Assembly: GCA_965216755.1 (NCBI GenBank) | Contig: CBDCGL010000011.1 | Coordinates: 4,320,001 to 4,384,000 of the forward strand | From: Alphaproteobacteria bacterium | GTDB taxonomy: Bacteria; Pseudomonadota; Alphaproteobacteria; UBA7887 | Direction of reading: 5' to 3' | Length of the DNA: 64,000 nucleotides | In this document: positions 6,463-61,406 of the stretch, piece after piece | Layout of the letters: every line of letters starts with the position of its first letter | Position numbering within the stretch: position 1 is the first letter of the stretch | Notes under the pieces: model-generated | Database searches by the model: none | What the model was told of the DNA's origin: nothing | Seen by the model: the letters and a program-made list of their open reading frames with translations, nothing else | Made by a program: the position numbers and the translations under genes

Positions 6463-9400
6463 TTAGTAAGTGGGGAAATCGCGGCTCAGATCTTCTTCGA
6501 CGGCAATCAGAGCGTCGCCATTTTCATAAACCCGATACACCGAGCCTTCGCCAAACGGATTGCTCATCGTACCGACGTGGGACCACTCCCCAGGGTTGTC
6601 TTCCCACAAAGAGATCGAGTCATTCTCATTGCCGGCAACAAAGATATCGATATCCCGAAGCACGCCGTCGTCGTCTGCCATCGGTGCCAGATTGTTACTG
6701 GCACCCAGAGTGTTGACGGACGCAGCGTCGAAGGATACGCGATCATGGCTGTCGCCGTCGGTCATATCGATCAGTTCGATGCTGTGCAGCTTGGCGACTT
6801 GGTTGTCCTCAGCCTCGGGGCCCATATAGAGCTTACCGATACCATTGGCGCCAAAATCATTGCCGACATGCAACCGGTCAAAGCCGCTGCCACCGTCAGC
6901 CACCGCAAAGTCCCGAATTTCCTTGAAGTCGGCCGAAGGCGTCAAGTCTTGGAGGACCAGGATATCATCGCCTTGGCCGCCATAGAGCTTGTCGCCGGCG
7001 TCATTATCAAGGCCGCTGTAAAGGGTGTCGTTGCCCTTACCGCCATACAAAAGGTCGTTGCCCGCGCCACCATTAATGATGTCATCACCATCACCGCCAT
7101 GGGCCGTGTCGTCACCTTCGCCAGCTTGGATGTTGTCGTCATCGTCGCCGCCAAAGATGATGTCGCCTTGGTCACCGCCCAGCAATTCGTCAGCCAATGC
7201 ACTGCCCCAGATTGTATTGGGCGTGCCATTGTCGGCGGCAACCGAGATGCCGCTGCCAGCGTCCTCAATGACGCTCTTTATTTCGATGGATGCCGCGACC
7301 GGTCCGGCGACACCATCCGACACGGTATAGGAGAGGTTGCCGCTGTCGGCGACGCCATTGTTGTCTGGCAAATAGCGCAGTGAGGCGAACTCAGCGGCGT
7401 CCAGAGCCTCTCCACCGACCAAGGCCACAAAAACGCCATCCGATGCGCCGGTTGGATGGTAAAAGACATCGCCTGCACCCGGTACGTCGCCGATCGAGTA
7501 GGTCAAGGTGTCGCCTTCCAGGTCGGCGGCCGGATTGACCATGAGGGCGTAACCCGCGGCGGCGAGTACGCCAGGCAGCGCGGCCGGGTCGGCCGGATCG
7601 GTTGGGCGAATGGCCGTATTGTCTGGTACCCAAACCGTGCGTGATTCCGGCACCGGCGGCGTGTTCAAGCTGCTCGTGCCCAAGTCCGTGATGTTCAGTG
7701 TGAGCTCGGCGCTTGCCGTGCTGCCGTCGCCGTCGACGATTGTGTAGGCAAACGCTTCAGACTGGTTGCCATCGACCGGCGGCGCTGCGTAAGTGTAGCC
7801 GCCCGTTTCAAAGTTGAAACTCAAGACGCCGTCCAACGGAGTCACGATGGTGACTGTATCGCCGCTGGTCGTCGTTCCGTCCGGATTGGTAATCGTTCCG
7901 GTGACCGGATCGTATTGGAAAGTGAGCGTTTCACCGCTCGACGGGTCGGTGAAACTGAGCGAGGCCACATGGGCGTCGCCACCGGCGGGTCCATCGGCGC
8001 CAAATACGTCATTGGCGAGGACGTTGCCGTCAACCACCGAGCCTTCATTGGTCGGAATTGTTGCCAAAAGCCCTTCGGTGAGGGCGCCGTCTTCGACCAC
8101 GACGATGTCATCGGGATAGGCGACATCGTTGAGTGGCGAATCGCCAGGCACGACTTCCGGCCCGATCCGGACCGCAATTGAGCGTACGCCGTTGGTCACC
8201 ACGAAGGTCTTCCAATCCGCCGGCGTCGTGTTATTCGACGGAAACGGTTCGCCGTCAGAGACGAAATAGACAATGTTCGAAACTTCATCGCTTGACGGTG
8301 TTGCCGAAACGATGCCTTCGACAACGCCGCGGGTAACGACCAAGGCATCATCATATTCCGTGCTTAAGCCGAGGCCGTTCATACCCAGCGCCAGGCTGTC
8401 GATGAAATCGCCCGCGTCGGCGATGTTCATGGTGACGGTGTTGAAGGCGCCAGCCGTATCACCCATGAAATCAAGGTCACCACCAGATGCGAAGACCACG
8501 AACGTCACGGTCACTTCGGCCGTAATATCGCCATAACCGTCGATCAAATCGGCCAAGGCTTCCTTCATCGCCGACAGGCGGCTTTTGCCGGTGCCGGGAA
8601 TGATATCGCCCATGCTGCCGGACACATCGACAACCATGGTCAAGTTGACGAGTTTCGCGATGCCTTCATTGGCGGCATTGCTGTCGTCTTCCGCGATTGG
8701 CTGATCGTCGGTGATGTTGATCCGCAGCGTGCTGCTGGCCGTGCTGCCGTCGTCGTCGGTCACCACATAGGTGAACTGGTCTGCGACCGGACCGCCGCTG
8801 TGATCGCCATTGTCGGTCAGGTCATAGCGATATTGGCCGTCGCCGTTGATCGTCAGCGTGCCGTGCGTGCCAATGATGATGGTGTTACCGGTGTCGCTAA
8901 CAGGCACGCCGTTAACTTCGGTGACTTTGGCTGGATCGGTGCTGGTGAAATTTAGCGTGCCGCTGGTGCTTTCCGTGATCGCGGCCGGGTCGCTGCCGAT
9001 GTCGTCTCCGAGCACCACGTCATCGCTATCAAGCGCCGATTCCTCAACAATGCCGTGGGTGATTTCGGCGACCGGTTGATTGGTGTCGTGGAAATGAATC
9101 CAGATCACCGACTTGGCCGTATCACCGTCCGCGTCAACGATGTGGTAGAAAAAATCTTCCATCCCGTGCGGCGGAACCGATTCGACGGTCAGCGTGTAGG
9201 TATAGCTTCCATCGGGTTTGATGGTGACAAATCCGTACTTGCCGTCGACCCGAAGGCCGTCTTCGGGCACCGGCCGTCCAGACAACATCGTTACCACAAT
9301 GTGGTTGTCACCACCGGGATCGTCATTGTCAAAGACGTTGCCCGAGACGCTGTTGCCAAGACCTTCGTCCAGACCAATCACTTCCGCTTTGGCGCGCGGC

Positions 9401-11445
9401 GCATCGTCCTCAACAGCAACGGTGAACGTGCTGCTGTGGGAATCGCCGTCTGAATCCGTGATGGTGTAGGTGAAATTCAGGTCCAACACGTCATCATCGC
9501 CGGTGCGGACGACATCCGGGTGGTCCAGCGGTCCAAGCAGTTCAAATACATAGCTGGCGCCAGTGGGCGTCGGCGTAATTGTTATGACAAAGATTGTATT
9601 GCCACCGGCCGATCCGGTGATGATCGTGTTGCCGCTGCCGTCGGTGCCTTGGCTATAAGTGAGCGGAACGCCATTCGAGGTGAGCGTGGCGGGATCCGAC
9701 GGAATTGCTTGCACATTCGGATCGCCGTCGGTCACCGAGGTGAATTCGACAACGAGGGCGCCATCGGCGGCCGGGCCATCCATGCCGTAGGAGAAAAGCA
9801 ATGTGCCTGTCGCGCTATCCGGCACGAACTCTTGATCATTGCCCTTGCCGACAGAGTCCTCGGTTACGACCACCTTGCTGCCGTCGCCACCAGGCTGACC
9901 ACCTTCGTCGATCGTCGGCACACCATCGCGCACACAAACATGGAACGACGCCGAGGTCGAATCCATGTCGAAATCGGTGATCGTGACGCCGAACTCGAGA
10001 CCGACCACATCATCGTCGCCGCTTTCGCCGGCGCCCATGTGATCGATGCCGCGGATCAGATCGAAATCAAAATCGCCAGTCGTCGTGTCGATCTCCAAAC
10101 GCCAGACCGTGTTGCCGCTATCCGGGCCAAGGGACGGTTCAAAGCGTCCGGTGACGCCGACAACGATCAGCGTATCGCCGTCGAGAAAATAGTAATGGCT
10201 GATCGGTTCGCCATCGGATGTACCGGCAATCGTGCTGCCGTCGCCGCTGTCGTCGGTGTAGCGAATGCCGTCAATCGAGAACCAGTCGAGCTGGCCATCG
10301 GGCACGATGCGCATGCCGCCAGAACCCGGCACGATCGCCAAGTTATCGACAGACTCGGCGGTTCGATTCGGGCCATCGGAGCCGTGGTAGACGACGATGC
10401 GACCCGTGGCGCTGGCGCTATCGATCGTGCCACCGACATCGTCCGTGGCAATTGGCGGTGCCTCGTTCAGGCACACCATCGAGTTGTCGCCAACGAACAA
10501 GGCCGGGCCATCGTCGGAAACCGAAATGGTCACTGTGGCGGATCCGGTCGCGCCCGTCGAATCGGTGATATCCAAGACAAACACCAGATCTTGTAGATCG
10601 TCCGGATCGCTCGGGTCGCCGTGATCGAGGCCGTCGAGTAAATCAAACGTGACGTCGCCCGTCGGTGAAATCGACAATTCGAACACGGGCCGGCCACCGG
10701 CGCTGCCTTCGATCACCAACGTGCCGCTGTCGTCCCGTGTCGTGATGTCGATTGGATCGCCGCCCGAGGTGACGATGGTCGGGAATCCGGCAAAGCCGAT
10801 GCTGGTAATGGGGTTGCCTGTTGAGCTGATCAGCGCCCCCGACGTGCTCCCCAGCACGCTCGGTGTTGGGAAAGGATCGGTAAAGGGGTCGAAGCCGGCT
10901 CCAAGGTCGATCGATTCATCCGTGCCCAGGCCGAGCGTTGCGCGCGGGCCGTCCAGCGCCTCAACACCAATGCCGCCGTCCAGACCAAGATTTTCTTGGG
11001 CAACGCGGCCCTCGGGCTCCTGGAAGCCATCCTGGGGAATTTCACCGATGACACCGCGCGCGCGCAGATGGTCGGGGAACAGGTCGCCAATCGTCACTGT
11101 GCCGTCATTGCCGAGGCCGTCGTCTTCGTCGACATCGCCTGGCGGTTGTTCACCCGCCGCGGTCGCGATCAGATCGTCGAGCGTCGCAATTTGGGAATCC
11201 GCAAAGACCAGCCCGACATCGTCGGCATTTTCGAGCTGCGCATAGAAACCAGAGATCGTGACATCGAAATTGTCAACAGTGACGACGGTGTCGAAGTCGC
11301 CCTGATTCGTGATGGTGATACCGTCGGTGCCGATATCATCAAAGACTGCGCGTTCGCCCGGTCTTAACTGGATCCGGTCGACTGGTGGAACATCAAATGC
11401 CCGAACTTCGACGCCGGCAGCGTCAACGATACGAATCGTTGCCAT
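6463..11445 (-). CDS. Large type I-secreted RTX adhesin (T1SS-143/Ig-like repeats, vWA domain, RTX nonapeptides)
   Basis: Repeated 'L..PLDH...ITDxDGD' and 'F.Y...D.DG..A' modules; vWA VVDVSGSM...FVSDGEP; GGDGDDIINGGAGNDLLYGGKGND repeats; no Sec signal; TAAG near the N-terminus. Confidence 0.85.
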   Translation of the reverse strand: MATIRIVDAAGVEVRAFDVPPVDRIQLRPGERAVFDDIGTDGITITNQGDFDTVVTVDNFDVTISGFYAQLENADDVGLVFADSQIATLDDLIATAAGEQPPGDVDEDDGLGNDGTVTIGDLFPDHLRARGVIGEIPQDGFQEPEGRVAQENLGLDGGIGVEALDGPRATLGLGTDESIDLGAGFDPFTDPFPTPSVLGSTSGALISSTGNPITSIGFAGFPTIVTSGGDPIDITTRDDSGTLVIEGSAGGRPVFELSISPTGDVTFDLLDGLDHGDPSDPDDLQDLVFVLDITDSTGATGSATVTISVSDDGPALFVGDNSMVCLNEAPPIATDDVGGTIDSASATGRIVVYHGSDGPNRTAESVDNLAIVPGSGGMRIVPDGQLDWFSIDGIRYTDDSGDGSTIAGTSDGEPISHYYFLDGDTLIVVGVTGRFEPSLGPDSGNTVWRLEIDTTTGDFDFDLIRGIDHMGAGESGDDDVVGLEFGVTITDFDMDSTSASFHVCVRDGVPTIDEGGQPGGDGSKVVVTEDSVGKGNDQEFVPDSATGTLLFSYGMDGPAADGALVVEFTSVTDGDPNVQAIPSDPATLTSNGVPLTYSQGTDGSGNTIITGSAGGNTIFVITITPTPTGASYVFELLGPLDHPDVVRTGDDDVLDLNFTYTITDSDGDSHSSTFTVAVEDDAPRAKAEVIGLDEGLGNSVSGNVFDNDDPGGDNHIVVTMLSGRPVPEDGLRVDGKYGFVTIKPDGSYTYTLTVESVPPHGMEDFFYHIVDADGDTAKSVIWIHFHDTNQPVAEITHGIVEESALDSDDVVLGDDIGSDPAAITESTSGTLNFTSTDPAKVTEVNGVPVSDTGNTIIIGTHGTLTINGDGQYRYDLTDNGDHSGGPVADQFTYVVTDDDGSTASSTLRINITDDQPIAEDDSNAANEGIAKLVNLTMVVDVSGSMGDIIPGTGKSRLSAMKEALADLIDGYGDITAEVTVTFVVFASGGDLDFMGDTAGAFNTVTMNIADAGDFIDSLALGMNGLGLSTEYDDALVVTRGVVEGIVSATPSSDEVSNIVYFVSDGEPFPSNNTTPADWKTFVVTNGVRSIAVRIGPEVVPGDSPLNDVAYPDDIVVVEDGALTEGLLATIPTNEGSVVDGNVLANDVFGADGPAGGDAHVASLSFTDPSSGETLTFQYDPVTGTITNPDGTTTSGDTVTIVTPLDGVLSFNFETGGYTYAAPPVDGNQSEAFAYTIVDGDGSTASAELTLNITDLGTSSLNTPPVPESRTVWVPDNTAIRPTDPADPAALPGVLAAAGYALMVNPAADLEGDTLTYSIGDVPGAGDVFYHPTGASDGVFVALVGGEALDAAEFASLRYLPDNNGVADSGNLSYTVSDGVAGPVAASIEIKSVIEDAGSGISVAADNGTPNTIWGSALADELLGGDQGDIIFGGDDDDNIQAGEGDDTAHGGDGDDIINGGAGNDLLYGGKGNDTLYSGLDNDAGDKLYGGQGDDILVLQDLTPSADFKEIRDFAVADGGSGFDRLHVGNDFGANGIGKLYMGPEAEDNQVAKLHSIELIDMTDGDSHDRVSFDAASVNTLGASNNLAPMADDDGVLRDIDIFVAGNENDSISLWEDNPGEWSHVGTMSNPFGEGSVYRVYENGDALIAVEEDLSRDFPTY

Positions 11446-47460: not shown

Positions 47461-49224
47461 TCAGTCTAAGCCGGCCGCCCGCAGCAACCCGGCAATCCGG
47501 TCGCGCACGGCCGCATCGCTGAATGGCGCCGTGGCCATAAGATTCGCGACGGTCTGTTTCGGATAGCGGGCCCGATATCGGTCCATGGCACGCCGTGCGT
47601 CTTCGTCCCGACCCAATGCGCCGAGGGCGGCCGCATACCAGCGCAGATAGAGCTCCGGCGAGCTATCCATACGTTCCATGGCATCGACGGCAGCCTGATA
47701 GCGCTCAGCGATCACATGTGCGACCACAACAACGCCCCGCGCCCAAGGTGATAAGTTTGGGTTGCGGCGGGACGCTTCTTCCATCAGGTCGATGGCCGTA
47801 TCCGACGCGCCGTTGAAGCAATGTGCATAGGCCAGGAAGCCGTAAGCGTCGACATCATTCGGATTTAGACGGAGCCCGCGTTCAAAGGCACGTATGGCGT
47901 CCTGAAGGTGACCGGACCATTGATGGACCAGTCCGAGCGTCAGGTGATTGGTGTGGGACGCGGGGTTTATCTCCACGCCCCGTTGGGCGAGCGTTCGCGC
48001 CTGCGCCAACGTCGCTCTGGGATCGGAGGTCCACTGATTGTCGTATTCAATCAGATAGGTCCAAGCGAGGCTGGCATAGGCGCGCGCATAGCTCGGGTCC
48101 AACTCGATCGCCTGCTGGTAAAGTTCGCGCGCCTTTTGGTTGTCTTCGGGTGTGAACCGAAACCAGAATTCACGCCCCTGCAGCACCAAATCGTAGGCCT
48201 GCAGATTCTCGGGCCGATCTTCGCCACGGACCCGACGACGTTCGCTGGTTTCTAGCTGCTGCGGCAATGACGCCACGATTCGCGCGGTGACCTCATCTTG
48301 CACCGCAAACACATCTTTAAGATCGCGGTCGAACCGTTCCGCCCACAAATGATGACCGTTCGTGCCGTCGACCAATTGCGCCGTGATGCGCACCCGTTCG
48401 CCTGAACGGCGCACGCTGCCCTCCAGCACATAGCGGACTCCGAGCTCACGCGCGACCGTTTGGACCTTGACCGGGCGATTCTTATAGGTGAACACCGAAT
48501 TTCGCGCGGCGACCGCCAATTCCTGGAAGCGGGCGAGTTCGGTGATGATGTCCTCGGTGATTCCGTCGGCGAAGTAGTCCTGGTCGTCACCGCCGCCCAT
48601 ATTGTCGAACGGCAGAACGGCGATGCTCACGCGCGCCGGCGGGCGTGTGGAGACAGCGGTATCGGCCGCGCTCGATGATGGGTCCGAGGCCTCGGTGTGC
48701 ATATGGAATACGTGCACCGGGGCATCGATATTTTTGACTTCGTGGGTGCCGCGATCGTCGAAATCGTAGGATACGCGCTTGCGAACTTGTTCGAAAACGC
48801 TCGCCGAGACTGCCACGCCGCCGGGCGCGGCAAGAGCCTGCAAGCGCGCCGCGACGTTGATACCGTCGCCGAAGATCGTGCCATCTGGCTGAACCACCAC
48901 GTCGCCCAAATGGACACCAATGCGAAACCGCATGCGTCGTTCTTCGGGTAGTTCAGCGTTACGCGCCGCCAGGTCCTCTTGAAGGTCGGCCGCGCACCGG
49001 ACCGCGTCGACGACGCTGGGAAACTCGGCCAAGATTGCGTCGCCGGTCGCGTCGACCAGCCGCCCACCATGTGCGTCCGAGCGGCCACGAAACACGTCGC
49101 GGCAGGCGCGCAGCGCGGCGATGGTGGCCACCTCGTCGTCTCGCATGAGTCGCGAATATCCAACCACGTCGGCGCTCATGAGCGCCGCCAATTTGCGATG
49201 TGGTGCCGTGTCGTTCACAAGCAT
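47461..49224 (-). CDS. Adenylate/guanylate cyclase-TolB-like-TPR protein
   Basis: ADVVGYSRLM, TGDAILAEF, FRIGVHLGDV, GDGINVAARLQ, IAVLPFDNM, YVLEGSVR, TPRs. Confidence 0.9.
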   Translation of the reverse strand: MLVNDTAPHRKLAALMSADVVGYSRLMRDDEVATIAALRACRDVFRGRSDAHGGRLVDATGDAILAEFPSVVDAVRCAADLQEDLAARNAELPEERRMRFRIGVHLGDVVVQPDGTIFGDGINVAARLQALAAPGGVAVSASVFEQVRKRVSYDFDDRGTHEVKNIDAPVHVFHMHTEASDPSSSAADTAVSTRPPARVSIAVLPFDNMGGGDDQDYFADGITEDIITELARFQELAVAARNSVFTYKNRPVKVQTVARELGVRYVLEGSVRRSGERVRITAQLVDGTNGHHLWAERFDRDLKDVFAVQDEVTARIVASLPQQLETSERRRVRGEDRPENLQAYDLVLQGREFWFRFTPEDNQKARELYQQAIELDPSYARAYASLAWTYLIEYDNQWTSDPRATLAQARTLAQRGVEINPASHTNHLTLGLVHQWSGHLQDAIRAFERGLRLNPNDVDAYGFLAYAHCFNGASDTAIDLMEEASRRNPNLSPWARGVVVVAHVIAERYQAAVDAMERMDSSPELYLRWYAAALGALGRDEDARRAMDRYRARYPKQTVANLMATAPFSDAAVRDRIAGLLRAAGLD

Positions 49225-49381
49225 CCCCTCAAGGCACCGGCGCGGGTCCGTGGTGCTGCTTGCCAAGGTCGTTCGATGCCGCACTGGTCGCGATATGGGC
49301 GCCCGGTTCGGTCGTTACAACGCGTGTCAAGTCATGGTGAAACGGCAGTCCTGGTTTTTTCGATGGTCCCACAGTGTCAAA

Positions 49382-50341
49382 CTACCGCTTTTCGGTGTCG
49401 CGATCCGCGCTCAACGCGGCGGCAACGGCGGTGCGACCGGGGATTGGGGCGACCGCGCCATAGCCGCAGGTCGACAACGCGGCCGCAACATTCGCGGTCG
49501 TCGCGGCCTCAAAGACCGGCGTTTTAGCGATCAATGCCGCCAGAAACGCACCAGCGAATGTGTCGCCCGCGCCCGTGGCGTCAACCGCGTTCGCTTTGTA
49601 TGGCGCAATGCGGCGCCGCGCCCGGCCCGTCGCGACCAAGGCGCCGTTCGCACCCATTTTCAGCGCGACCACGTCGCAACCTAGTCCCAAATAAAAATCG
49701 ACGATCGCATCCGGTTCTCTGAGCCCGGTTAGCAGCACGGCATCGTCCAAACTCGGCAGGGCAATGTCAGCTTGCGCGATGGCTCCATGAATGACCGCGC
49801 GTGCGCGGGCCAATGGCCACAACTGCGCTCTGAAGTTTGTGTCGTAGGACACGCGCACGCCATTGGCCTTGGCGATGTCGATGGCGCGAAAAGCGGCGTC
49901 ACAGGCGCCGTCGCTAATTGCCTGGCTGATTCCGGACATGTGGACGATCTGCGCCTGGGCGATCAATGTCTCGGGAATTTGCGCCGTGCCAAAGCGGCTG
50001 GCTGCGGAGCCGGCGCGGTAATAGGTAAATGCGTGGCCATCATCATGGTGGGTCACGAAATAAACGCCGGTTGGGGCGTCGGGGTCACGAAGGACGTGGC
50101 TGTGATCCACTCCTTCGCGCCGCCATAGTTCCACCAAGGCATCGCCGAAGACGTCGCGGCCAACCGCGGTGACATAGGCGACACGCGCGCCCTGGCGTGC
50201 GGCCGCGATGGCACAATTCGACGTGTCGCCGCCGTAACCCCAGGTGAATGCGCCGAGAACGCGGTCAGGCCCGGCCTGATTAAACTCGACCATGGGCTCG
50301 CCGAAGCAAACGATCTGAGCGACAGGCGGTGTGGTTGCCAC
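49382..50341 (-). CDS. kdgK: 2-keto-3-deoxygluconate kinase (PfkB family)
   Basis: FGEPMVEF, GGDTSN, YYRAGSAAS, DTNFR, DATGAGDTF; directly downstream of eda. Confidence 0.8.
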   Translation of the reverse strand: MATTPPVAQIVCFGEPMVEFNQAGPDRVLGAFTWGYGGDTSNCAIAAARQGARVAYVTAVGRDVFGDALVELWRREGVDHSHVLRDPDAPTGVYFVTHHDDGHAFTYYRAGSAASRFGTAQIPETLIAQAQIVHMSGISQAISDGACDAAFRAIDIAKANGVRVSYDTNFRAQLWPLARARAVIHGAIAQADIALPSLDDAVLLTGLREPDAIVDFYLGLGCDVVALKMGANGALVATGRARRRIAPYKANAVDATGAGDTFAGAFLAALIAKTPVFEAATTANVAAALSTCGYGAVAPIPGRTAVAAALSADRDTEKR

Positions 50342-50345
50342 GGCC

Positions 50346-50981
50346 CTAGGCTTGTGCCGCCGCGGCACGATAGCCGCGGGCATTGGCGACGAATGCATCG
50401 CGCGCCCCGTCGCGGATCAATTCTTCATTGATCAAGTTGCCGCCAACGCCGACGAGGGCCGCGCCGGCCTGCAGATAGGCGTCAATGTCATCGCGGCCAA
50501 TACCACCTGTCGGCACCAACGGCACCGACGGAAACACCGCTTTGAGCGCGTGGATATGCGCCGGGCCGCCGGCGCTGGACGCGGGAAAAATCTTCACCGC
50601 ATCGGCGCCCGCGGTGGCGGCATTGTGAACTTCGGTCGGTGTATAGGCTCCCAACAAGCACGGGATCCGCGCCTCATGACAGAGTCCGACAAGGCTCGGC
50701 GCGGTGACCGGAGATACAATAAACCGCGCATTGGCCTGCAGACAGCGTTCAGCGTCGGCCTCGGACATCACCGAGCCAGCCCCGATAATGATACCCTGGT
50801 CATCGCGATATGAGTCGATGAGCGCGATGGCATCAGGGATCGTCAGCGTGATTTCGGCAGTATTGAATCCGGCCAGGTGTAGCCAGTCGACGGCGGTGCG
50901 CGCGCTTGCCGCTGTGGTTGTGCGAATGACCGGGATCACGCGCTGGCTGCCGAAAATGTGTAATTGCCTGTGGCCGATCAT
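50346..50981 (-). CDS. eda: KDPG/KHG aldolase
   Basis: VIPVIR, EITLT, GAGSV, FIVSP, TPTEV, VKIFPA, PTGGI. Confidence 0.88.
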   Translation of the reverse strand: MIGHRQLHIFGSQRVIPVIRTTTAASARTAVDWLHLAGFNTAEITLTIPDAIALIDSYRDDQGIIIGAGSVMSEADAERCLQANARFIVSPVTAPSLVGLCHEARIPCLLGAYTPTEVHNAATAGADAVKIFPASSAGGPAHIHALKAVFPSVPLVPTGGIGRDDIDAYLQAGAALVGVGGNLINEELIRDGARDAFVANARGYRAAAAQA

Positions 50982-51059
50982 GACAATCGCAAAGATAACC
51001 GAAAATGCCCCCATTGGTTAGGCGTTGGTTGGTGCTGCGGCGGCCCTTGGACGGGTTGT

Positions 51060-51092
51060 TTAAGGGTTTTTTCACGCTAACCGACTATTAAC
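51060..51092. promoter_or_regulatory. Two tandem CtrA-like boxes
   Basis: TTAA-GGGTTTT-TTCAC and CTAA-CCGACTA-TTAAC in the eda/alg8 divergent region. Confidence 0.5.
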
Positions 51093-51163
51093 AAGATGTT
51101 TCGACCGGCGCGTCACGAGTGCGGTGACGGGGCCGGTTGTTCCTTGTTTGAGCCTGCCCAAAG

Positions 51164-53845
51164 ATGGTGCCTGCAGCCCACGCAACGACGTTGACCGCCA
51201 ATGCGCCGCAGCCAACGACCGCGCCGGCCATGGCGTGCTGGCTCGGCACGATGGCTTATGTCGCCGTCCTTGTCGCGCTGCTGATGGTGCTGCCAGCCTC
51301 GGTGCTCAATGCGGAAAGTGCGCAATTCCTGCTCATTATCGGTTGGATTGGCACCTGGCGTTATAGCTGGGCAACAATTCACGCGGGACGGGCGTTGATC
51401 TATGCGTTCATCCGGTTTCCGCGTTTGCGTGCCGCGGCCGATCGGTTGGGCCCGCGTGGTTTGCCGTCCCATCTTTTCGTGCTGATCACCTCTTATCGTA
51501 TTGATGCCGAGACCAACGCTGCCGTCTACGCGAGTTTGATCGACGATGTTTCTGAATGCGCTATTCGCACGATAATCGTTGCTGCTGTAAGCGATGAAGC
51601 CGACGAACGTCAGTTGCAAGCTCTGTTTTGCCGTCTTGCACCACCGCCGGGGGTTGAACTGGTCATAATGCGCCAAGATGGGACCGGTAAACGGACCGCG
51701 ATGAGCGAGGGTTTGCGTGCCATTTCGCGGCGCATCCCGCCCGCTGACAGTCTGGTCTTGTTCATGGACGGGGACGTGCGCTTGCCGCGGGGCACGCTGA
51801 GACGGACAATGCCGTTCTTCGCTTTGATGCCCCGCCTCGGTGGTGTGACGACAGACAATCGCGGCATCACGACGGGAAGCAATTGGGTCAAGGAATGGTA
51901 TGACATGCGCTTCGCGCAGCGCCATGTTCTGATGTGCTCGTTGAGCTTGTCGTGGAGGGTGCTGGTCTTGACCGGGCGTTTCAGCATGTTTCGCGCCGAC
52001 ATCGCCACCGACGCCGGATTCATCAAGGCGGTCGAGGAAGACCACATCGCCCATTGGCGCTTTGGCCATCTAAAGTTTCTGACCGGCGACGACAAATCGA
52101 CCTGGTATTGGGTGCTGAAGAACCGGTGGGACATGTTGTATCTGCCGGACGTTCAAGTTCACAGCTTCGAAGTTCTGCCATCGCCATCGCTGATCAAAAG
52201 TTCAATTCAGCTGATGGTGCGATGGTTCGGCAACATGATGCGCAATAACGGCCGGGCAATCGCCTTGGGGCCACGCGTCACGGGCGGATTCATTTGGTGG
52301 TCGTTGGTTGATCAACGCTTGTCGATGTGGACAAGCTTAACCGGGCCGGTGGCAACGGCATTTGCGGCAATGGTTGTCAGCCCGGTGTTGATTATCGTGT
52401 ATCTGACCTGGGTGATGATCACACGCTTTTTGCAAGCCGCGATCGCCGGCGGTGTGCGGCGACGTTTCAGTCCATATATGCCGTTTCTTCTGTACTACAC
52501 GCAAGTCGTTGGATCGTTTGTAAAGATCTATGTGAGCTTTCGGCTCAACCGGCAGCGTTGGACACGTCAAGGTATTGGGGGCAACAAACGTTTGACCCTG
52601 AAGCAACGCCTTCAGAATGGGGTCTCGCTTTATATTCATAGCTTATCGTTTGTGACCTTTTTGTTCCTGATGGCACTGGCATCAGGCGCGCTTTTTTTAC
52701 CAAGCGTCGGCGCGATCGATAGTGTTTTCGCCGGCCAAGATGGAACCGTGGCTGCGACCGATGATGCGCGATGGTTGCAGGCGGCCATCGATGCGGCGCC
52801 GCGCGGGGCCGTTGTGCGCATACCTGCCGGTGATTATCATTTGGGCGGACCTATCGTGATCGCGCGTGATGACATAACGCTTCAGGGAGCGGGCAGCAAA
52901 CAAACCCGACTTGTTGCGAGTTTTGCCGGCACCGACGATGCCTTAATTACGATCGCCGGGGAGCTACCGCGCGACGCGGCTGCGGGGCAATGTGCCGAGC
53001 TGTCTGTCGCGATCACAGCCGATCAGACGATGGTTCGGCTGAACCGAGGTTTTGGTTTGCAGCGTGGCGATTTCGTCTCGCTGCGTGCTGCCAACGATCC
53101 GTCATTTCTGCGCGAGTTGGGAGCCGAAGTTTGGCAGCGGCGATATCCACACCTTCGGCAAACACTCGCCCAAGTCAGTCACGCGGAGGGTGCGTCCGCG
53201 CGGCTCGTGGATCCGGTCGGGTTGGCACTGCCCGCGGGTGGTGAAGTATGCCGGCTAGATGTGGCGGAGAATGTGAGCTTACGCGGCTTCACATTGCGCT
53301 ATGACCTTGGTGTCGCCAGCGACGCGGCAGATTACAGCAACAGTCGCCCCGACCATCGGCTCGACGGTGTCGCGGTGCGCGGCGCCGCGGATGTGCGCCT
53401 GTCCGACATTGTCGTTGTGAATGCCGGCCGACATCCGATCCACTTGGACACTGTCGTCCGCTTGGTGGCCCAAGACCTCGCGGCGCACGGTGCGTACAAC
53501 AAAGGTAAAGGCGGTAACGGCTACGTCCGCTTGGCTCGGACCGTACGCTCGCAGTTCGATGGGCTGACCTTGCGCGGCTTGCGCCACCTCACCATTCAAT
53601 GGTCGAGCCACGGCAATCGCATCGTTGATTTGGATAGCGACAGCGATGTCAATTTCCATGGCGGTTACACACATGAGAATGTGGTTCACGCAACCCGTTT
53701 GTCACCGCGGGCCAATCATCCATGGGGCGCGGTGACGCGGACGCCGGCGGATGCCGTGTGGGCGCCGCCCGATGGACCGGGCAACAAAGTATTCGTCAAT
53801 GGCCGCGCAGTCACCGCGCCACCGCGCAAGCGCGAGGGCAATTGA
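51164..53845 (+). CDS. alg8: Alg8-type mannuronan synthase (GT2) fused to a C-terminal pectate-lyase-like beta-helix domain
   Basis: IGTWRYSW, QDGTGKR, FMDGD, RFAQRHVLMCS, VLVLTGRFS, FLTGDDKSTW, LMVRWFGNM, LVDQRLSMWT; then DDARWLQAAID...VRIPAGDY...ITLQGAG. Confidence 0.88.
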   Translation: MVPAAHATTLTANAPQPTTAPAMACWLGTMAYVAVLVALLMVLPASVLNAESAQFLLIIGWIGTWRYSWATIHAGRALIYAFIRFPRLRAAADRLGPRGLPSHLFVLITSYRIDAETNAAVYASLIDDVSECAIRTIIVAAVSDEADERQLQALFCRLAPPPGVELVIMRQDGTGKRTAMSEGLRAISRRIPPADSLVLFMDGDVRLPRGTLRRTMPFFALMPRLGGVTTDNRGITTGSNWVKEWYDMRFAQRHVLMCSLSLSWRVLVLTGRFSMFRADIATDAGFIKAVEEDHIAHWRFGHLKFLTGDDKSTWYWVLKNRWDMLYLPDVQVHSFEVLPSPSLIKSSIQLMVRWFGNMMRNNGRAIALGPRVTGGFIWWSLVDQRLSMWTSLTGPVATAFAAMVVSPVLIIVYLTWVMITRFLQAAIAGGVRRRFSPYMPFLLYYTQVVGSFVKIYVSFRLNRQRWTRQGIGGNKRLTLKQRLQNGVSLYIHSLSFVTFLFLMALASGALFLPSVGAIDSVFAGQDGTVAATDDARWLQAAIDAAPRGAVVRIPAGDYHLGGPIVIARDDITLQGAGSKQTRLVASFAGTDDALITIAGELPRDAAAGQCAELSVAITADQTMVRLNRGFGLQRGDFVSLRAANDPSFLRELGAEVWQRRYPHLRQTLAQVSHAEGASARLVDPVGLALPAGGEVCRLDVAENVSLRGFTLRYDLGVASDAADYSNSRPDHRLDGVAVRGAADVRLSDIVVVNAGRHPIHLDTVVRLVAQDLAAHGAYNKGKGGNGYVRLARTVRSQFDGLTLRGLRHLTIQWSSHGNRIVDLDSDSDVNFHGGYTHENVVHATRLSPRANHPWGAVTRTPADAVWAPPDGPGNKVFVNGRAVTAPPRKREGN

Positions 53846-53852
53846 TCGCGTT

Positions 53853-55478
53853 ATGCTTGACGAACAAGACAAACTCACCCCGGTCGCGGTTTCTGGCCCG
53901 GTCACCCGCGAAAGTCGCAGCGGTCGACGCCATATCCGTGCGCGTATGCCCGTCGATTTGGAACTCGACGGGGCCCGCTATCGCGCCAACGACATCTCCA
54001 TCGGTGGCTTTGGTATCGAAGGCATGACCACGGTTCGCCAAGTCGGCGAGTCCCTCACTGTGTCAGTGTTACTGCCGTTCCGTGACTACGACTTCAAAAT
54101 GACGCTGACCTGCGAGGTTGCCCATATAGATCGGCAGAAGGTTTATATCGGTTTTCGATTTGTCGACATTACGGAGACGCAAGTCGCGCTGTTGGGCTAT
54201 TTAATCCAGAGCTACCTGTCGGGCGAGCTGGTCACGGTCGAGAACTTGTTGAGCGTGCCGCAAATTTCCGGTGGCGCGCGTGCGGTTGGCAAGGTGGCGG
54301 GTGTCGACAAGCCGACCGCCCGGCAATTGGTGGGCCAAGGTGTTCGCTACGTGGTGCTTGGCGTTGCCGGATTGGTCGTGATGGGGGTGCTGGGACTATC
54401 TTTCTACGATCGATTTTTCACTGTTGATGCTGAGCTGGCTGCGTTGACCGCGCCGCGTATTGCGTTGCGGGCGCCGGCCGACGGTCGATTGGTTGTGGAT
54501 CCGTCACTGGTCGGACGAAATGTCGAAATCGGCACGCGATTGTTCGCCATTCGCGACCCAGATGTGGCGAGTCTGATTGCAGAAGCCGAGGCAGTGATCA
54601 CCAAGCAGCAAGCCAAACTGGTGGGCTTGCAGGTCCAACTACGCGAACGCCGAAACTTCTTTAAAGCGTACAGCAAACTGGCGGCGGCCCAATTGGCTGA
54701 GGCCGAGGCGACATTGCACCAGGCGCGGATTGGTTTTGAAACGGCTGAAAGGGAGTATTTTCGCACGCAAGAACTGCGCGAGGCCGGGCATGCGACAGTG
54801 CGGTCACTCGACGATTCCCTTAATCGGTACGCGCAAGCCAAGGCCGCCATGGAGCAGGCCGCCGCCGCGGTTGATCGCGCGCGCACAAACGAGGGCCTGG
54901 CGGACCAAGGCCAATACTATACAAACAAGCGTGGCGACGGCGGTGAGATTGGTGAGATCCGGCGGGAGATCCAAGCCGTCGAAGCTGAAATTGTGGCACA
55001 ACGCGAGCGTGTTGCGGCGCTGCAGGCGCGCGAGTCCGATCAAGTGGTGGTGAGCCCCTGTAACTGTTTGGTACAGCATGTGCGCAGCGTCGATGGCGAT
55101 TGGGTCGCACAAGGCGAAGATGTCACGATCTTGGCGGAGGCAGGCGATTCGCAAGTCCTCGTCAGCGCGCTGGTCGATATTGTTGTCGTCGATCGGCTGC
55201 GACTTTATCAACGCGCCCACATCGCCTTTGCGGATCGTGACCAGCCCATGCGTGGACGGATTGTTGCGATTAATCGCACAGCCTTGCCGGAAGACCGCTT
55301 GGGATTGCCTCCGGGTGCCGATGGGCGTGCGGGCGTCGCCACGATCTTGGTGATGCCGGACCAAGCAATTGACGGCTTGCCCATTGGTTTGCCCGCGCAG
55401 GTGACGTTTCCATTGTCTTGGCGGCAGGCAACGTTTCGCTGGTTAGGCGGCCTACCCGCAACCACTGACGACGGCTAG
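53853..55478 (+). CDS. alg44: Alg44-like co-polymerase (PilZ plus membrane-fusion domain)
   Basis: RRHIR and DISIGG PilZ motifs, YLSGELV, one TM helix, long helical hairpin, SPCNC. Confidence 0.85.
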   Translation: MLDEQDKLTPVAVSGPVTRESRSGRRHIRARMPVDLELDGARYRANDISIGGFGIEGMTTVRQVGESLTVSVLLPFRDYDFKMTLTCEVAHIDRQKVYIGFRFVDITETQVALLGYLIQSYLSGELVTVENLLSVPQISGGARAVGKVAGVDKPTARQLVGQGVRYVVLGVAGLVVMGVLGLSFYDRFFTVDAELAALTAPRIALRAPADGRLVVDPSLVGRNVEIGTRLFAIRDPDVASLIAEAEAVITKQQAKLVGLQVQLRERRNFFKAYSKLAAAQLAEAEATLHQARIGFETAEREYFRTQELREAGHATVRSLDDSLNRYAQAKAAMEQAAAAVDRARTNEGLADQGQYYTNKRGDGGEIGEIRREIQAVEAEIVAQRERVAALQARESDQVVVSPCNCLVQHVRSVDGDWVAQGEDVTILAEAGDSQVLVSALVDIVVVDRLRLYQRAHIAFADRDQPMRGRIVAINRTALPEDRLGLPPGADGRAGVATILVMPDQAIDGLPIGLPAQVTFPLSWRQATFRWLGGLPATTDDG

Positions 55479-55836
55479 CCGCCCAAACTCGATTTCCCCG
55501 GATCGCGGATGTACTCTGGCGCGGGTCAATGGATCATGCAATGTGGTCACAGCGCAGTCGGAGACATGCCGCGAAATGATTTGTCGAAGATGGTGGCCTG
55601 ACGGCGTAGCGGGGAGATGTTCCCGCATGTGGTTGGGGATATGGCTGTCGGTTTTGATATGCATCTTCTTGAGTGGTTGTGGTGTCTGTGTCGGCCGTGG
55701 CGGTAGTGCAAGCGCACCGTTCATTGCCTGCGGCCTGGGCATACGTGTCCAGGCGCCGGGTTCGGTCGGCGCTGAACTGGCTTGTCCCGCGCCGGTTCAC
55801 AACCCGTCTAGACGCCACTATCGCTAGGAGATTTGA

Positions 55837-59335: not shown

Positions 59336-60562
59336 TCACGACGAATGGCAGCCAGGCACACGCCGATCCGGCGGTGTCGGGGGCGAGCTGCGGTCGACCG
59401 TCGTCCAATGCTCCACGTAACCAAGTTGAATCAATGTGGTGCGGGCGCGGACCCACCCTTCGAGGCGTGTCGTGGCCAGTTGCGCCAGTTCCGCACGGGA
59501 GCTGGGGCGCATTTGGCCGGGCGACTGCTGCGCTTGGTTCTTGATCAGTGATTGGACTGCTTCAACGGCGCTTTGAGCCGCATCGGCCAGTGCCGCTTCT
59601 CGGGCGAGATAGTGCTGCTCAAATTCCTGCCGTGCCCAAGGTGCGCACCGCGTGACGTCGCCAACGGGCGGGTGCCGCCAGCAACTGTGCAACCCACACG
59701 AGGCCAACTGGCACCGCACCTGATACCACGACAAGGCCTGGCGCAATATTTGGTTAATCAGGTCGACATGCATCTCGGCCATTTCGGCATGATCGGCACA
59801 CGATTCTCGGAAATCGGCAAGTGTGCGCAGAAGCGACAAGACCAGCGTCAAGCGACCCGCAATATCTGCGTGGCGGTCCTGATCATCGACCGTTCGTGAC
59901 GATCGGCGCAGTCTCTGCCATTCACATTGAAATAGGTGCTGCACAAATGATTGCGGGAGTGCTGCGATAGAGCCAAGCAACGAACCACGAAACTGGATTG
60001 TGCGTTCAATGGCGTGCGGGTTGCTGATGAGATCGATCGGTCCGAATAAGTCAAAGATCGAACGGTGCCAGGCCAGCACAACAGGAAACGTGCTTGTTGT
60101 CCCCTCGTTGGCCAAAACCGTATCGCATGTCGGCGGTTCATCAAGCGGTGCTTGTGGCACTATGCCAACCACATGGTTGTCGTCGCGGTGCGCAATGTGT
60201 GCTTGGATGACTGCCGCGCCGGTTCGTTGCCGGCAATGCACCAAGCCGGCGATATAGTCGGGCGCCAAGTGCTTGTCGAGTCCGCCCAGAATGACAAAGT
60301 CGCCGCGCGCTCGCGCCATCATTTCATTGATCCGGGCGATTCGCGCAAAATCGTCGTCACCCACTGGCCCATCCAACAGCCGCCATTGCGGCGAGCCACC
60401 GGATGTCTCGCGGATAGCCGTCCATAGCGCCGTGTCTATCGCGGACCCGCTGGACACGATGACCTCGGTGGGCGGCAAGGTTTGCGCTAACAGGGCGTGT
60501 ACGGCATCCGACGCCACCGAGCCGTCGCCACGATCGCAAGGCAAAAGATACGAGATTTTCAT
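59336..60562 (-). CDS. Divergent GT2-like glycosyltransferase
   Basis: ISYLLP...ALLAQT...EVIV...N....ARGDFVIL; canonical DxD replaced by GLD. Confidence 0.55.
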   Translation of the reverse strand: MKISYLLPCDRGDGSVASDAVHALLAQTLPPTEVIVSSGSAIDTALWTAIRETSGGSPQWRLLDGPVGDDDFARIARINEMMARARGDFVILGGLDKHLAPDYIAGLVHCRQRTGAAVIQAHIAHRDDNHVVGIVPQAPLDEPPTCDTVLANEGTTSTFPVVLAWHRSIFDLFGPIDLISNPHAIERTIQFRGSLLGSIAALPQSFVQHLFQCEWQRLRRSSRTVDDQDRHADIAGRLTLVLSLLRTLADFRESCADHAEMAEMHVDLINQILRQALSWYQVRCQLASCGLHSCWRHPPVGDVTRCAPWARQEFEQHYLAREAALADAAQSAVEAVQSLIKNQAQQSPGQMRPSSRAELAQLATTRLEGWVRARTTLIQLGYVEHWTTVDRSSPPTPPDRRVPGCHSS

Positions 60563-60599
60563 TGCGGTCGTGCCAGATCCGTCAGCGAGAACGGTCGGA

Positions 60600-61406
60600 T
60601 CACGGTGTGACGCCAATCGGGACGTCGTGGCGTCGCAGCGCCCAGCGCCAAACGCCGCTACCGGATTCGGCAACCATGGCGGGACTTTGCAGGCCATGGA
60701 GTGCGCGTGCATTATGAATCAGCAAGGCATCGCCTGGGGCCATGACGGCCATGCCGGCACGTCCGGCGGCGACGATGTGGTGGTCGAGAAAATGGCCAAA
60801 CTCGGATATCAGCCGACGTACCAACGGGTCGCCGCCATCGACGATGTATGATGGGTCCCATGTGATCGTCCACCCGCCCGGGCCACCGCGAAAGACAGGT
60901 GTCAAATGACCCCCGCCATCCAAGCGTGCGAACCGAAGGGGTAAATTCGTCAGCTGCGCCCAAAGTCGCGGGACCGACATTTCGGCAGTCGCGGCAATGC
61001 ATCCCGCGTCGGCGAACACAATCCCGTGTCGCAAGATGGTGCCGACCGGCATCCCGATCAGGACCAGGTCGGGCGTTGCCGAATCATCGGCGCCGGCGGC
61101 GTGCAACGGCTCGTCGACCAAGGTTCGTCCCAGCGCGGGCGTGGTCACGAACGTCGATGCGATGTCTGTAGGTTCGGGGGGTGGCAAAACCGGCCAACGC
61201 CTCGGACGCCCGGCGGCGACGGTCTCCGAAAGCCTGATATCGCCCATGGCGGCGGCGATCGCGCGCCAGCATTCCTGATCGGCAAGCCCGAAGCCAAGCC
61301 CCACGACATGGGTCACCAAGGCGTCATCCACGGCTGTGGCCAAGCGCGCGGCAACTGATGGCGGTTTGGCGTCAGATAGATCCAGCCTTCGATACAACGC
61401 GTTCAT
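60600..61406 (-). CDS. Degenerate TauD/TfdA-like dioxygenase
   Basis: PGDALLIHNARALHG C-terminal motif; PLHAAG instead of HxD. Confidence 0.55.
   Translation of the reverse strand: MNALYRRLDLSDAKPPSVAARLATAVDDALVTHVVGLGFGLADQECWRAIAAAMGDIRLSETVAAGRPRRWPVLPPPEPTDIASTFVTTPALGRTLVDEPLHAAGADDSATPDLVLIGMPVGTILRHGIVFADAGCIAATAEMSVPRLWAQLTNLPLRFARLDGGGHLTPVFRGGPGGWTITWDPSYIVDGGDPLVRRLISEFGHFLDHHIVAAGRAGMAVMAPGDALLIHNARALHGLQSPAMVAESGSGVWRWALRRHDVPIGVTP

Follow-up and report, generated by a model that had tools for sequence, protein, structure and literature searches.

The window analysed here is a 64-kb stretch of an Alphaproteobacteria bacterium genome (contig CBDCGL010000011.1, positions 4,320,001 to 4,384,000), and its subject is a two-gene unit in which an Alg8-family polysaccharide synthase is fused to a right-handed beta-helix domain. 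Gene 1 (51164..53845, +) is a single uninterrupted open reading frame (ORF) encoding an 893-aa Alg8-family synthase with a C-terminal, predicted periplasmic beta-helix, an assignment based on Pfam matches, relatives and structural modeling. Its TGA stop codon (53843-53845) is followed after 7 nt by the ATG of gene 2 (53853..55478, +), which encodes a 541-aa Alg44-like co-polymerase/adaptor with a PilZ domain, one membrane helix and a membrane-fusion domain bearing an extra, apparently helical hairpin. A GAGG sequence lies ~14 nt ahead of the gene 2 start, and the two genes are thus probably translated as a pair. The 149-bp divergent intergenic region (51015..51163) is, from the positions of the genes, the presumed promoter of the unit; a consensus promoter and terminator scan gave nothing exceeding shuffled expectation and had no match in this interval. 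An earlier note on this DNA had described the in-frame fusion, the PilZ-containing Alg44 after 7 bp and a compact synthase and PilZ-adaptor pair with algD, K, E, G, X and L missing from the window, and all of this agrees with what was found: none of those genes is within the 64 kb, and algI, J and F likewise do not flank the pair.

The synthase module comprises residues 1-512 of gene 1 (51164..52699, +) and consists of membrane helices and a cytoplasmic GT-A domain, as judged from motifs, identity to Alg8 and fold. Pfam places a Glyco_tranf_2_3 domain (PF13641) at residues 104-356 (E=2.3e-29), and the catalytic motifs, which the earlier note had mentioned without naming them, are intact: DGD (202-204), TGDDK (307-311), RWFGN (353-357) and QRW (464-466). 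Over ~460 residues the protein is 43-44% identical to the Pseudomonas and Azotobacter Alg8 proteins of canonical algD-8-44-K-E-G-X-L operons (L078, L081, L084). The fold of the N-terminal half resembles hyaluronan synthases (TM-score normalised to the target, 0.57-0.65), the BcsA cellulose synthase and chitin synthases, and no solved structure was matched to the synthase part by phmmer. Residues 32-492 of the gene 1 product align with Azotobacter Alg8 (493 aa), so the canonical protein ends approximately at the last membrane helix and the fusion is a simple C-terminal extension.

The full-length model of gene 1 has a mean predicted local distance difference test score (pLDDT) of 86.8 and a predicted template modeling score (pTM) of 0.58, the latter leaving the relative placement of the domains uncertain. 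It orders the protein as two N-terminal membrane helices, the GT-A domain, interface helices, further membrane helices, a linker and the beta-helix (~534-878). The last membrane helix in this model (residues 479-507; 52598..52684, +) is predicted to run from cytoplasm to periplasm, and is followed by a linker (residues 508-533; 52685..52762, +) in which pLDDT falls below 50 at 523-530. The loop ahead of the last helix (415-486) has 13 Lys or Arg residues and no Asp or Glu, in agreement with the positive-inside rule; because this basic loop and the QRW motif, which is necessarily cytoplasmic, precede the helix, the helix would lead outward. The beta-helix domain should therefore be periplasmic and, in the model, tethered at the channel exit.

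The fused domain (residues 534-878, ~345 residues; 52763..53797, +) is a right-handed parallel beta-helix of an unnamed family, based on the domain model, fold searches and conservation. Modeled alone with 27 homologues, it reached a pLDDT of 92.1 and a pTM of 0.91. The beta-helix fold expected by the earlier note is thus borne out, as is the pectate-lyase-like start, which corresponds to a Pect-lyase_RHGA_epim match (PF12708) at residues 531-595 (E=1.6e-5, 25.2 bits), just under the 27-bit gathering threshold; this match covers profile positions 14-80 of 213 and is similarity at the level of the N-terminal cap only. Among selected rows of a whole-library structural alignment, which do not form a complete ranking, the best match was the Klebsiella K1 capsule lyase 7w1c (Z 29.0, root-mean-square deviation 3.4, 319 residues aligned), together with the KP34p57 capsule depolymerase (Z 26.6), a Geobacillus virus pectin-lyase-like protein (Z 26.0), LKA1 gp49 (Z 25.7), the alginate epimerase/lyase 8ja4 (Z 25.7), the AlgE4 A-module (Z 24.7, 19% identity), GH28 hydrolases (Z 22-24) and the K5 lyase (Z 20.6). 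Foldseek results agree with this list, and a protein-language-model search of the domain returned pectate-lyase-superfamily clusters. Pfam, NCBIfam and sequence searches of solved structures gave no family-level match for the domain. The fold matches alone mark the domain as a carbohydrate-active beta-helix and tilt the choice toward enzymes that act on acidic polysaccharides.

When 1.84 billion representatives were searched with a profile, 349 proteins of the domain family were recovered at E≤1e-30, a number that rose to 1381 at E≤1e-10 and to 5816 at E≤1e-3. There are three kinds of member: fused synthases, stand-alone proteins of 330-420 aa (annotated 'hypothetical' where named at all) and long multi-module proteins. 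Within a sample of 33 long non-synthase members, RTX calcium-binding repeats are present in 30 and CBM2 modules in 14. A protein of this kind in Caenispirillum salinarum (L019:6259-9444, -) is 1061 aa long and combines three CBM2 modules, the domain and RTX repeats; its gene adjoins an ABC/HlyD type I secretion pair and runs divergently to an unfused alg8-like cluster. Another genome (G032), a same-class relative of the window organism, has an unfused synthase and two RTX proteins carrying the domain. By analogy, the RTX-type members mirror the modular design of the secreted AlgE epimerases. A tree of the beta-helix domains mixed fragments with stand-alone forms, and architecture labels could not be read from it.

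Conserved core residues of the domain include N644, R665, N779-K780-G781, G786-Y787, R807-H808, D828, N830, H832-G833 and N839, giving the family signature NKG..G.GY, RH and D.N.HGG. Twelve of these positions (N779, K780, G781, G786, Y787, R807, H808, D828, N830, H832, G833, N839) are kept at 95% or more both in 88 fused members and in 84 RTX-type or other multidomain members, and the shared core residues lie on successive rungs, 24-28 residues apart. Since the core is kept in fused and RTX-type members alike, these residues probably serve the domain's own chemistry rather than contacts with the synthase. The conserved Lys/Tyr/His/Arg/Asn set, which has no pair of acids, is easier to reconcile with abstraction of a proton beside a carboxylate, the chemistry of lyases and epimerases, than with hydrolysis. 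A similar residue set is described in the available part of a report on the K1 lyase, in which a Tyr/His/Arg set acts with no metal and cuts beside the glucuronic acid of the capsule (PMC8822698). Judged from these residues and the modeled fold, the domain would be a lyase in the first place, an epimerase in the second and a non-catalytic guide in the third. The suggestion of the earlier note that it may modify or cleave the chain agrees with both the residue conservation and the neighboring folds.

The alternative that survives best, itself unlikely, is that the domain is a polymer-level C5-epimerase, analogous to AlgG or AlgE, that converts mannuronate to guluronate or glucuronate to iduronate. 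Epimerases and lyases share their first catalytic step, 8ja4 and the AlgE4 A-module are among the top structural matches, the RTX-bearing family members echo the AlgE A+R design, and a search with the domain profile reaches AlgE4, AlgE6 and mannuronan epimerases at E ~1e-3. Those sequence matches, however, are limited to the cap (profile positions 5-76), and the top structural matches are lyases with longer alignments (319 vs 244-245 residues). The DPHD motif, in its fuller form YG(F/I)DPH(D/E), is invariant in 10 AlgG sequences and absent from the 27 domain sequences, as the earlier note had already remarked for the window protein. AlgG homology was considered and ruled out: hhalign comparison with an alignment of ten AlgG sequences gave a probability of 0.4%. 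On these comparisons the domain is not an AlgG/AlgE homologue in any sense beyond fold.

Less probable again is a non-catalytic role, with the domain as a periplasmic guide or scaffold for the chain that keeps hold of the polymer or provides a dock for the adaptor ring. The modeled position at the channel exit would suit such a role, and D734, R756, H757, R789, R792 and Q812, conserved mainly or only in the fused forms, could serve contacts within the synthase complex. The full domain is also dispensable in some lineages, since Halomonas-type relatives keep only a remnant of it. This reading is opposed by K780, Y787, R807, H808, D828, N830, H832 and N839, whose retention extends to secreted RTX-type members that lack a synthase to dock with, a conservation pattern typical of an active site. 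Lower still we place a glycoside hydrolase that trims the polymer, as BcsZ, PslG and PelA do in other synthase systems. GH28, GH87, GH110 and GH82 beta-helix enzymes occur in the fold lists (Z ~20-23), and phmmer matched the domain to just one solved structure, a GH87 alpha-1,3-glucanase, with only the N-terminal cap aligned (E=0.0016). The family nevertheless has no invariant acidic pair, D828 being its only invariant acidic residue, the conserved set is Lys/Tyr/His/Arg/Asn, and related loci hold genes for uronate lyases and uronate-forming dehydrogenases.

The fusion recurs well beyond the window. Among the 120 best relatives listed, 46 (the gene 1 product included) have lengths of 851-911 aa and align over no less than 90% of the 893 residues. 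Species-representative genomes yielded 80 retained loci, and in 20 of these the match extends to residue 852 or further; a metagenome scan added six full-length fusions and one cut by a contig end. The fused architecture is present in 27 loci besides the window, all from unrelated assemblies, and spans at least five phyla as judged from the titles of the database records, with carriers among the Gammaproteobacteria, Ramlibacter, Desulfobacterota, Campylobacterota (Sulfurimonas, Sulfuricurvum) and an Aquificaceae genome. Cultured carriers include Halodesulfovibrio spirochaetisodalis and Desulfogranum japonicum, and a Sorangium protein is likewise of the fused type.

Public contigs that were assembled independently for two runs of one sample cover 51000-55600 and show 0 differences, and a contig of a second sample bridges the domain junction (52192-52862), also without differences. 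These contigs belong to a single study and could themselves have given rise to the window assembly, so the recurrence in homologues is the stronger proof of the fusion. It is accordingly very improbable that the fusion arose as an assembly or frame artefact or that the gene is decaying and functionless: the absence of the unit from the 18 same-family genomes searched speaks for this view, and against it stand the same architecture in relatives and unrelated assemblies, an open 893-codon frame with its motifs and family-invariant residues all intact, and the contigs of two samples across the junction. The earlier note had allowed that the architecture might already be common and characterized; it is indeed widespread, whereas no characterization was found in print. 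We found no account of an Alg8-beta-helix fusion in the literature, although supplementary figure S5 of PMC7112194 may show related loci. The accessible part of that paper, by Bundalovic-Torma et al., describes 'atypical' alginate operons without algKE and algGXLIJF and mentions no fused synthase (PMC7112194). What was already known is thus a synthase-dependent exopolysaccharide system of the Alg8/Alg44 lineage, and what is new here is a fused, predicted periplasmic enzyme domain of an unclassified family together with a probable TolC-type exit.

That exit is a likely export route missed by the earlier note, and it is suggested by the partner gene. Gene 2 has the features of an Alg44, namely both PilZ motifs, one membrane helix, a membrane-fusion domain and a position next to the synthase gene. 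Its PilZ domain (residues 22-118; 53916..54206, +) contains intact RxxxR (RSGRR, 22-26) and DxSxxG (DISIGG, 47-52) motifs and matches solved Alg44 PilZ domains (E=1.7e-5). The single membrane helix (residues 159-177; 54327..54383, +) was located by a hydropathy scan, and Pfam places HlyD_3 at residues 398-481. The protein is ~150 residues longer than Azotobacter Alg44 (387 aa), mostly because of one Ala/Glu/Gln/Arg-rich insertion of ~130-150 residues that it has in common with its counterparts at other fused loci and that the canonical Alg44 of Azotobacter, Pseudomonas and Marinobacter lacks. The insertion is matched by HlyD, EmrA and DevB-type adaptor models and, by analogy, is read as the helical hairpin used by adaptors of these types to contact TolC.

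An Alg44-like gene is directly adjacent in 25 of the 27 other fused loci, the remaining two being cut by contig ends; it lies upstream of the synthase gene in the distant fused clade and downstream in the near clade (window, L085, L100). A third conserved gene occurs in 13 of the 27 loci (L005, L007, L020 and 10 more) and encodes a protein of ~410-540 aa with a signal peptide, usually in convergent orientation. Of nine copies tested, four have a match to the outer-membrane efflux protein (OEP) family, and a single one of these exceeds the cut-off (33.6 bits vs 22). With a hairpin-bearing adaptor in the unit and a TolC-like gene in these 13 loci, export is probably by a TolC-type duct and not by AlgK/AlgE. 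Searches of the window genome with Azotobacter AlgK, E, G, X, L and I gave no BLASTP match at E≤1e-4, one weak match to the porin-like Alginate_exp family (30.9 bits) lies ~340 kb from the unit, and three OEP genes are present elsewhere in the genome, none adjacent to the unit. A precedent for a synthase-adaptor gene pair that relies on TolC is the bicistronic bgsBA unit, which, according to the available part of its description, requires TolC for production of a mixed-linkage glucan (PMC13438883). By this analogy, the best model is that the synthase-adaptor pair docks to a TolC-family channel while the beta-helix domain processes the chain in the periplasm.

Which polymer is made was approached through the dehydrogenase genes of 158 loci. 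Short synthases (<590 aa) are accompanied by an AlgD-type gene in 44 loci, by a Ugd-type gene in 1 and by no dehydrogenase gene in the locus in 35; the corresponding numbers are 0, 35 and 17 for mid-length synthases (600-720 aa) and 0, 2 and 24 for fused synthases. The two dehydrogenase types are separated by the TuaD model of NCBIfam, which scores 447-507 bits for the Ugd type vs 262 bits for Azotobacter AlgD. An AlgD-type enzyme is lacking in five genomes that carry distant-clade fused genes (best identity 34-38% in four, no match in the fifth). In a tree of 112 synthase domains, for which the root is not fixed, 23 rows form an all-fused clade (support 100), 59 rows form the clade of AlgD-linked canonical Alg8 (support 99), and 30 rows unite the window, L085 and L086 with Ugd-linked mid-length genes of Halomonas type (Shimodaira-Hasegawa-like approximate likelihood ratio 90). 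The window synthase therefore falls outside the AlgD-linked canonical clade and in a sister clade, so that the Alg8 identity given in the earlier note stands for family membership and not for the canonical branch. The mid-length synthases retain only a remnant of the beta-helix cap, which suggests loss from a fused ancestor, subject to the unfixed root.

A conserved cluster found in L018 and ~35 similar loci (Halomonas, Billgrantia, Salinicola, Modicisalibacter) contains ugd, an alg8-like gene (640-670 aa), an alg44-like gene, PL14 and PL5-like lyase genes and a gene for a giant Sel1-repeat protein; its dehydrogenase is always of the Ugd type and never of the AlgD type. In a Sulfurimonas locus, a PL7 lyase gene lies directly downstream. 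Clade linkage and lyase neighbors lean in favor of UDP-glucuronate as the substrate of the extended synthases. The terms 'alginate unit' and 'oligomannuronate' used in the earlier note are consequently not established, since the window synthase lies in the sister clade and the unfused members of that clade are linked to Ugd-type genes (35 loci) and not to AlgD-type genes (0 loci). The donor sugar may be either GDP-mannuronate or UDP-glucuronate, and the polymer either mannuronan or glucuronan.

Genome-wide, the search for algD, K and E that the earlier note had suggested was successful in part. An AlgD-type enzyme, 55% identical to Azotobacter AlgD, is encoded ~100 kb upstream on the same contig (4260001-4280000) within a Wzx/Wzy cluster, and AlgK and AlgE are without a BLASTP match, as given above. 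The same Wzx/Wzy cluster also holds two asparagine synthases, a heparinase II/III-like protein, three GT4 genes, a deacetylase and a Wzy_C protein.

A broader proposal is that the fused clade and its Ugd-linked unfused sisters are the missing machinery for glucuronan (beta-1,4-polyglucuronate). It would comprise an Alg8-like synthase using UDP-glucuronate, gating by the PilZ adaptor, an adaptor-TolC exit and unclassified beta-helix uronate lyases or epimerases, either fused or as secreted RTX forms, with canonical Alg8 as a derived form that has lost such a domain. Taken whole, this proposal is tentative, and we regard it as doubtful in its full extent. A 2023 paper, in its available part, gives the genes for bacterial glucuronan biosynthesis as unknown (PMC10180729), and the polymer lead is thus worth testing. 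A rhizobial link to glucuronan was dropped, as the matches on a Rhizobium chromid are classic AlgD-linked clusters. This locus (L170, Rhizobium sp. T136 chromid) has the classic AlgD-type set with Alg8, Alg44, AlgG-like, AlgI and AlgX homologues, and alg8-like genes are carried by it and by 8 other Rhizobium records.

On balance, and with moderate confidence, we read the two genes as a compact synthase-dependent exopolysaccharide unit, gated by cyclic di-GMP (c-di-GMP), with a built-in chain-processing domain. The product of gene 1 would polymerize a nucleotide-activated uronic acid in the cytoplasm and thread the chain through the inner membrane. At the channel exit, the beta-helix domain would act on the emerging acidic chain, presumably as a metal-independent beta-elimination lyase that controls chain length or clears stalled polymer, with K780, Y787, R807, H808, D828 and H832 as candidate catalytic residues. 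The PilZ domain of gene 2 is predicted to bind c-di-GMP and turn the synthase on, and the hairpin of the same protein may dock to a TolC-family channel encoded elsewhere, in place of AlgK/AlgE.

Several observations weigh against this interpretation. Sequence-level matches of the domain to known beta-helix enzymes are confined to the N-terminal cap, and the fold alone leaves the function unfixed, with GH28 hydrolases only ~5-6 Z units under the top lyase. A stand-alone member of 380 aa is encoded in Thermus thermophilus plasmids (4 records; L171:6860-8002) among genes for a phytase-like esterase, CHAD, Ppx/GppA and a histidine phosphatase, with no obvious link to uronates; given this phosphate-metabolism context, the domain family may be functionally broader. 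An AlgD-type and a Ugd-type dehydrogenase are both encoded in the window genome, each away from the unit, and of the 20 positions that discriminate the AlgD-linked from the Ugd-linked synthases, the gene 1 product agrees with each group at 8 and with neither at 4. The TolC-like assignment of the third gene is weak, as 5 of the 9 tested copies have no OEP match; this gene is also absent from the near-clade loci L085 and L100 and has no homologue in the window genome (best tblastn E=0.019, no hmmsearch match). The missing unit in all 18 same-family genomes further suggests that it may be a recent acquisition, and the two-gene unit is sporadic and probably spreads horizontally.

To our knowledge, synthase-dependent exopolysaccharide systems hold polymerization and periplasmic modification in separate proteins. 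The unit described here would place both jobs in one polypeptide and thus form a minimal, portable two-gene module to make and tailor an acidic polymer. The Lys/Tyr/His/Arg signature of this large unnamed family marks a candidate new family of lyases or epimerases, and the hairpin adaptor with its TolC-like partner suggests that Alg44-type systems can export through a duct like that of an efflux pump. The split between AlgD-linked short synthases (44 loci) and Ugd-linked extended synthases (37 loci) makes the genetic basis of bacterial glucuronan testable.

Divergent from the synthase gene are a KDG-kinase-like PfkB gene and a KDPG/KHG aldolase gene (Eda) (49382..51014, -), assigned with Pfam and NCBIfam. 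The best NCBIfam match of the former is the model for kinases of 2-keto-3-deoxygluconate (KDG) and 2-keto-3-deoxygalactonate (KDGal) (206.7 bits, below the model cut-off), and the latter scores 156.5 bits against the eda subfamily (cut-off 156.05). KDG kinase and the aldolase of 2-keto-3-deoxy-6-phosphogluconate (KDPG) and 2-keto-4-hydroxyglutarate (KHG) carry out the end steps of uronate breakdown; the relation of these two neighbors to the two-gene unit is uncertain. Two genes upstream (47461-49284, -) lies the gene for a protein of 607 aa in which TPR repeats follow an adenylate/guanylate cyclase domain. Elsewhere in the window are a 1660-aa ORF (6463-11445, -) and a 458-aa ORF (59336-60712, -), the latter with only a weak GT2 match (E=0.023).

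Among known systems, the textbook pair Alg8-Alg44 of Pseudomonas and Azotobacter is close in plan, having a processive GT2 synthase with an adjacent PilZ, membrane-helix and membrane-fusion partner. The window unit differs from it in the extra periplasmic domain of the synthase (~380 residues), in the hairpin that lengthens the partner, in the lack of flanking algD/K/E/G/X/L/I/J/F and in a synthase outside the AlgD-linked clade. AlgG and the A-modules of AlgE1-7 are right-handed beta-helices of similar size (Z 24.7-25.7 for AlgE4 and 8ja4) that act on a polyuronate after polymerization, as the window domain is proposed to do, and the RTX repeats of AlgE recur in relatives of the window domain. 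The latter, in contrast, has no DPHD motif and no detectable profile similarity to AlgG, bears a different signature and is fused to a synthase.

The phage tailspike lyases (K1 lyase 7w1c, LKA1 gp49, K5 lyase) are among the top-ranking folds, and the Tyr/His/Arg set of the K1 lyase resembles residues conserved in the window domain; the phage enzymes are 12-16% identical to that domain and are trimeric virion proteins, whereas the window domain would be a membrane-tethered part of a biosynthetic enzyme. In rhizobial BgsBA, the c-di-GMP site is located on the synthase. BgsBA-TolC resembles the window unit, in the part of its description available, as a gene pair for a GT2 synthase and a membrane-fusion protein that is controlled by c-di-GMP and uses a TolC encoded elsewhere (PMC13438883), but it differs in its synthase family, its neutral polymer and the lack of a fused periplasmic enzyme domain. 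The clusters of Halomonas and Caenispirillum type, for which the literature searched held no characterization, contain the nearest unfused synthases (45-49% identity, same clade), with an Alg44-like partner and the remnant of the beta-helix cap. Unlike the window unit, they have an adjacent Ugd-type dehydrogenase, PL14 and PL5-like lyases and the giant Sel1-repeat protein, and in Caenispirillum the full domain is supplied separately as the secreted CBM2-RTX protein.

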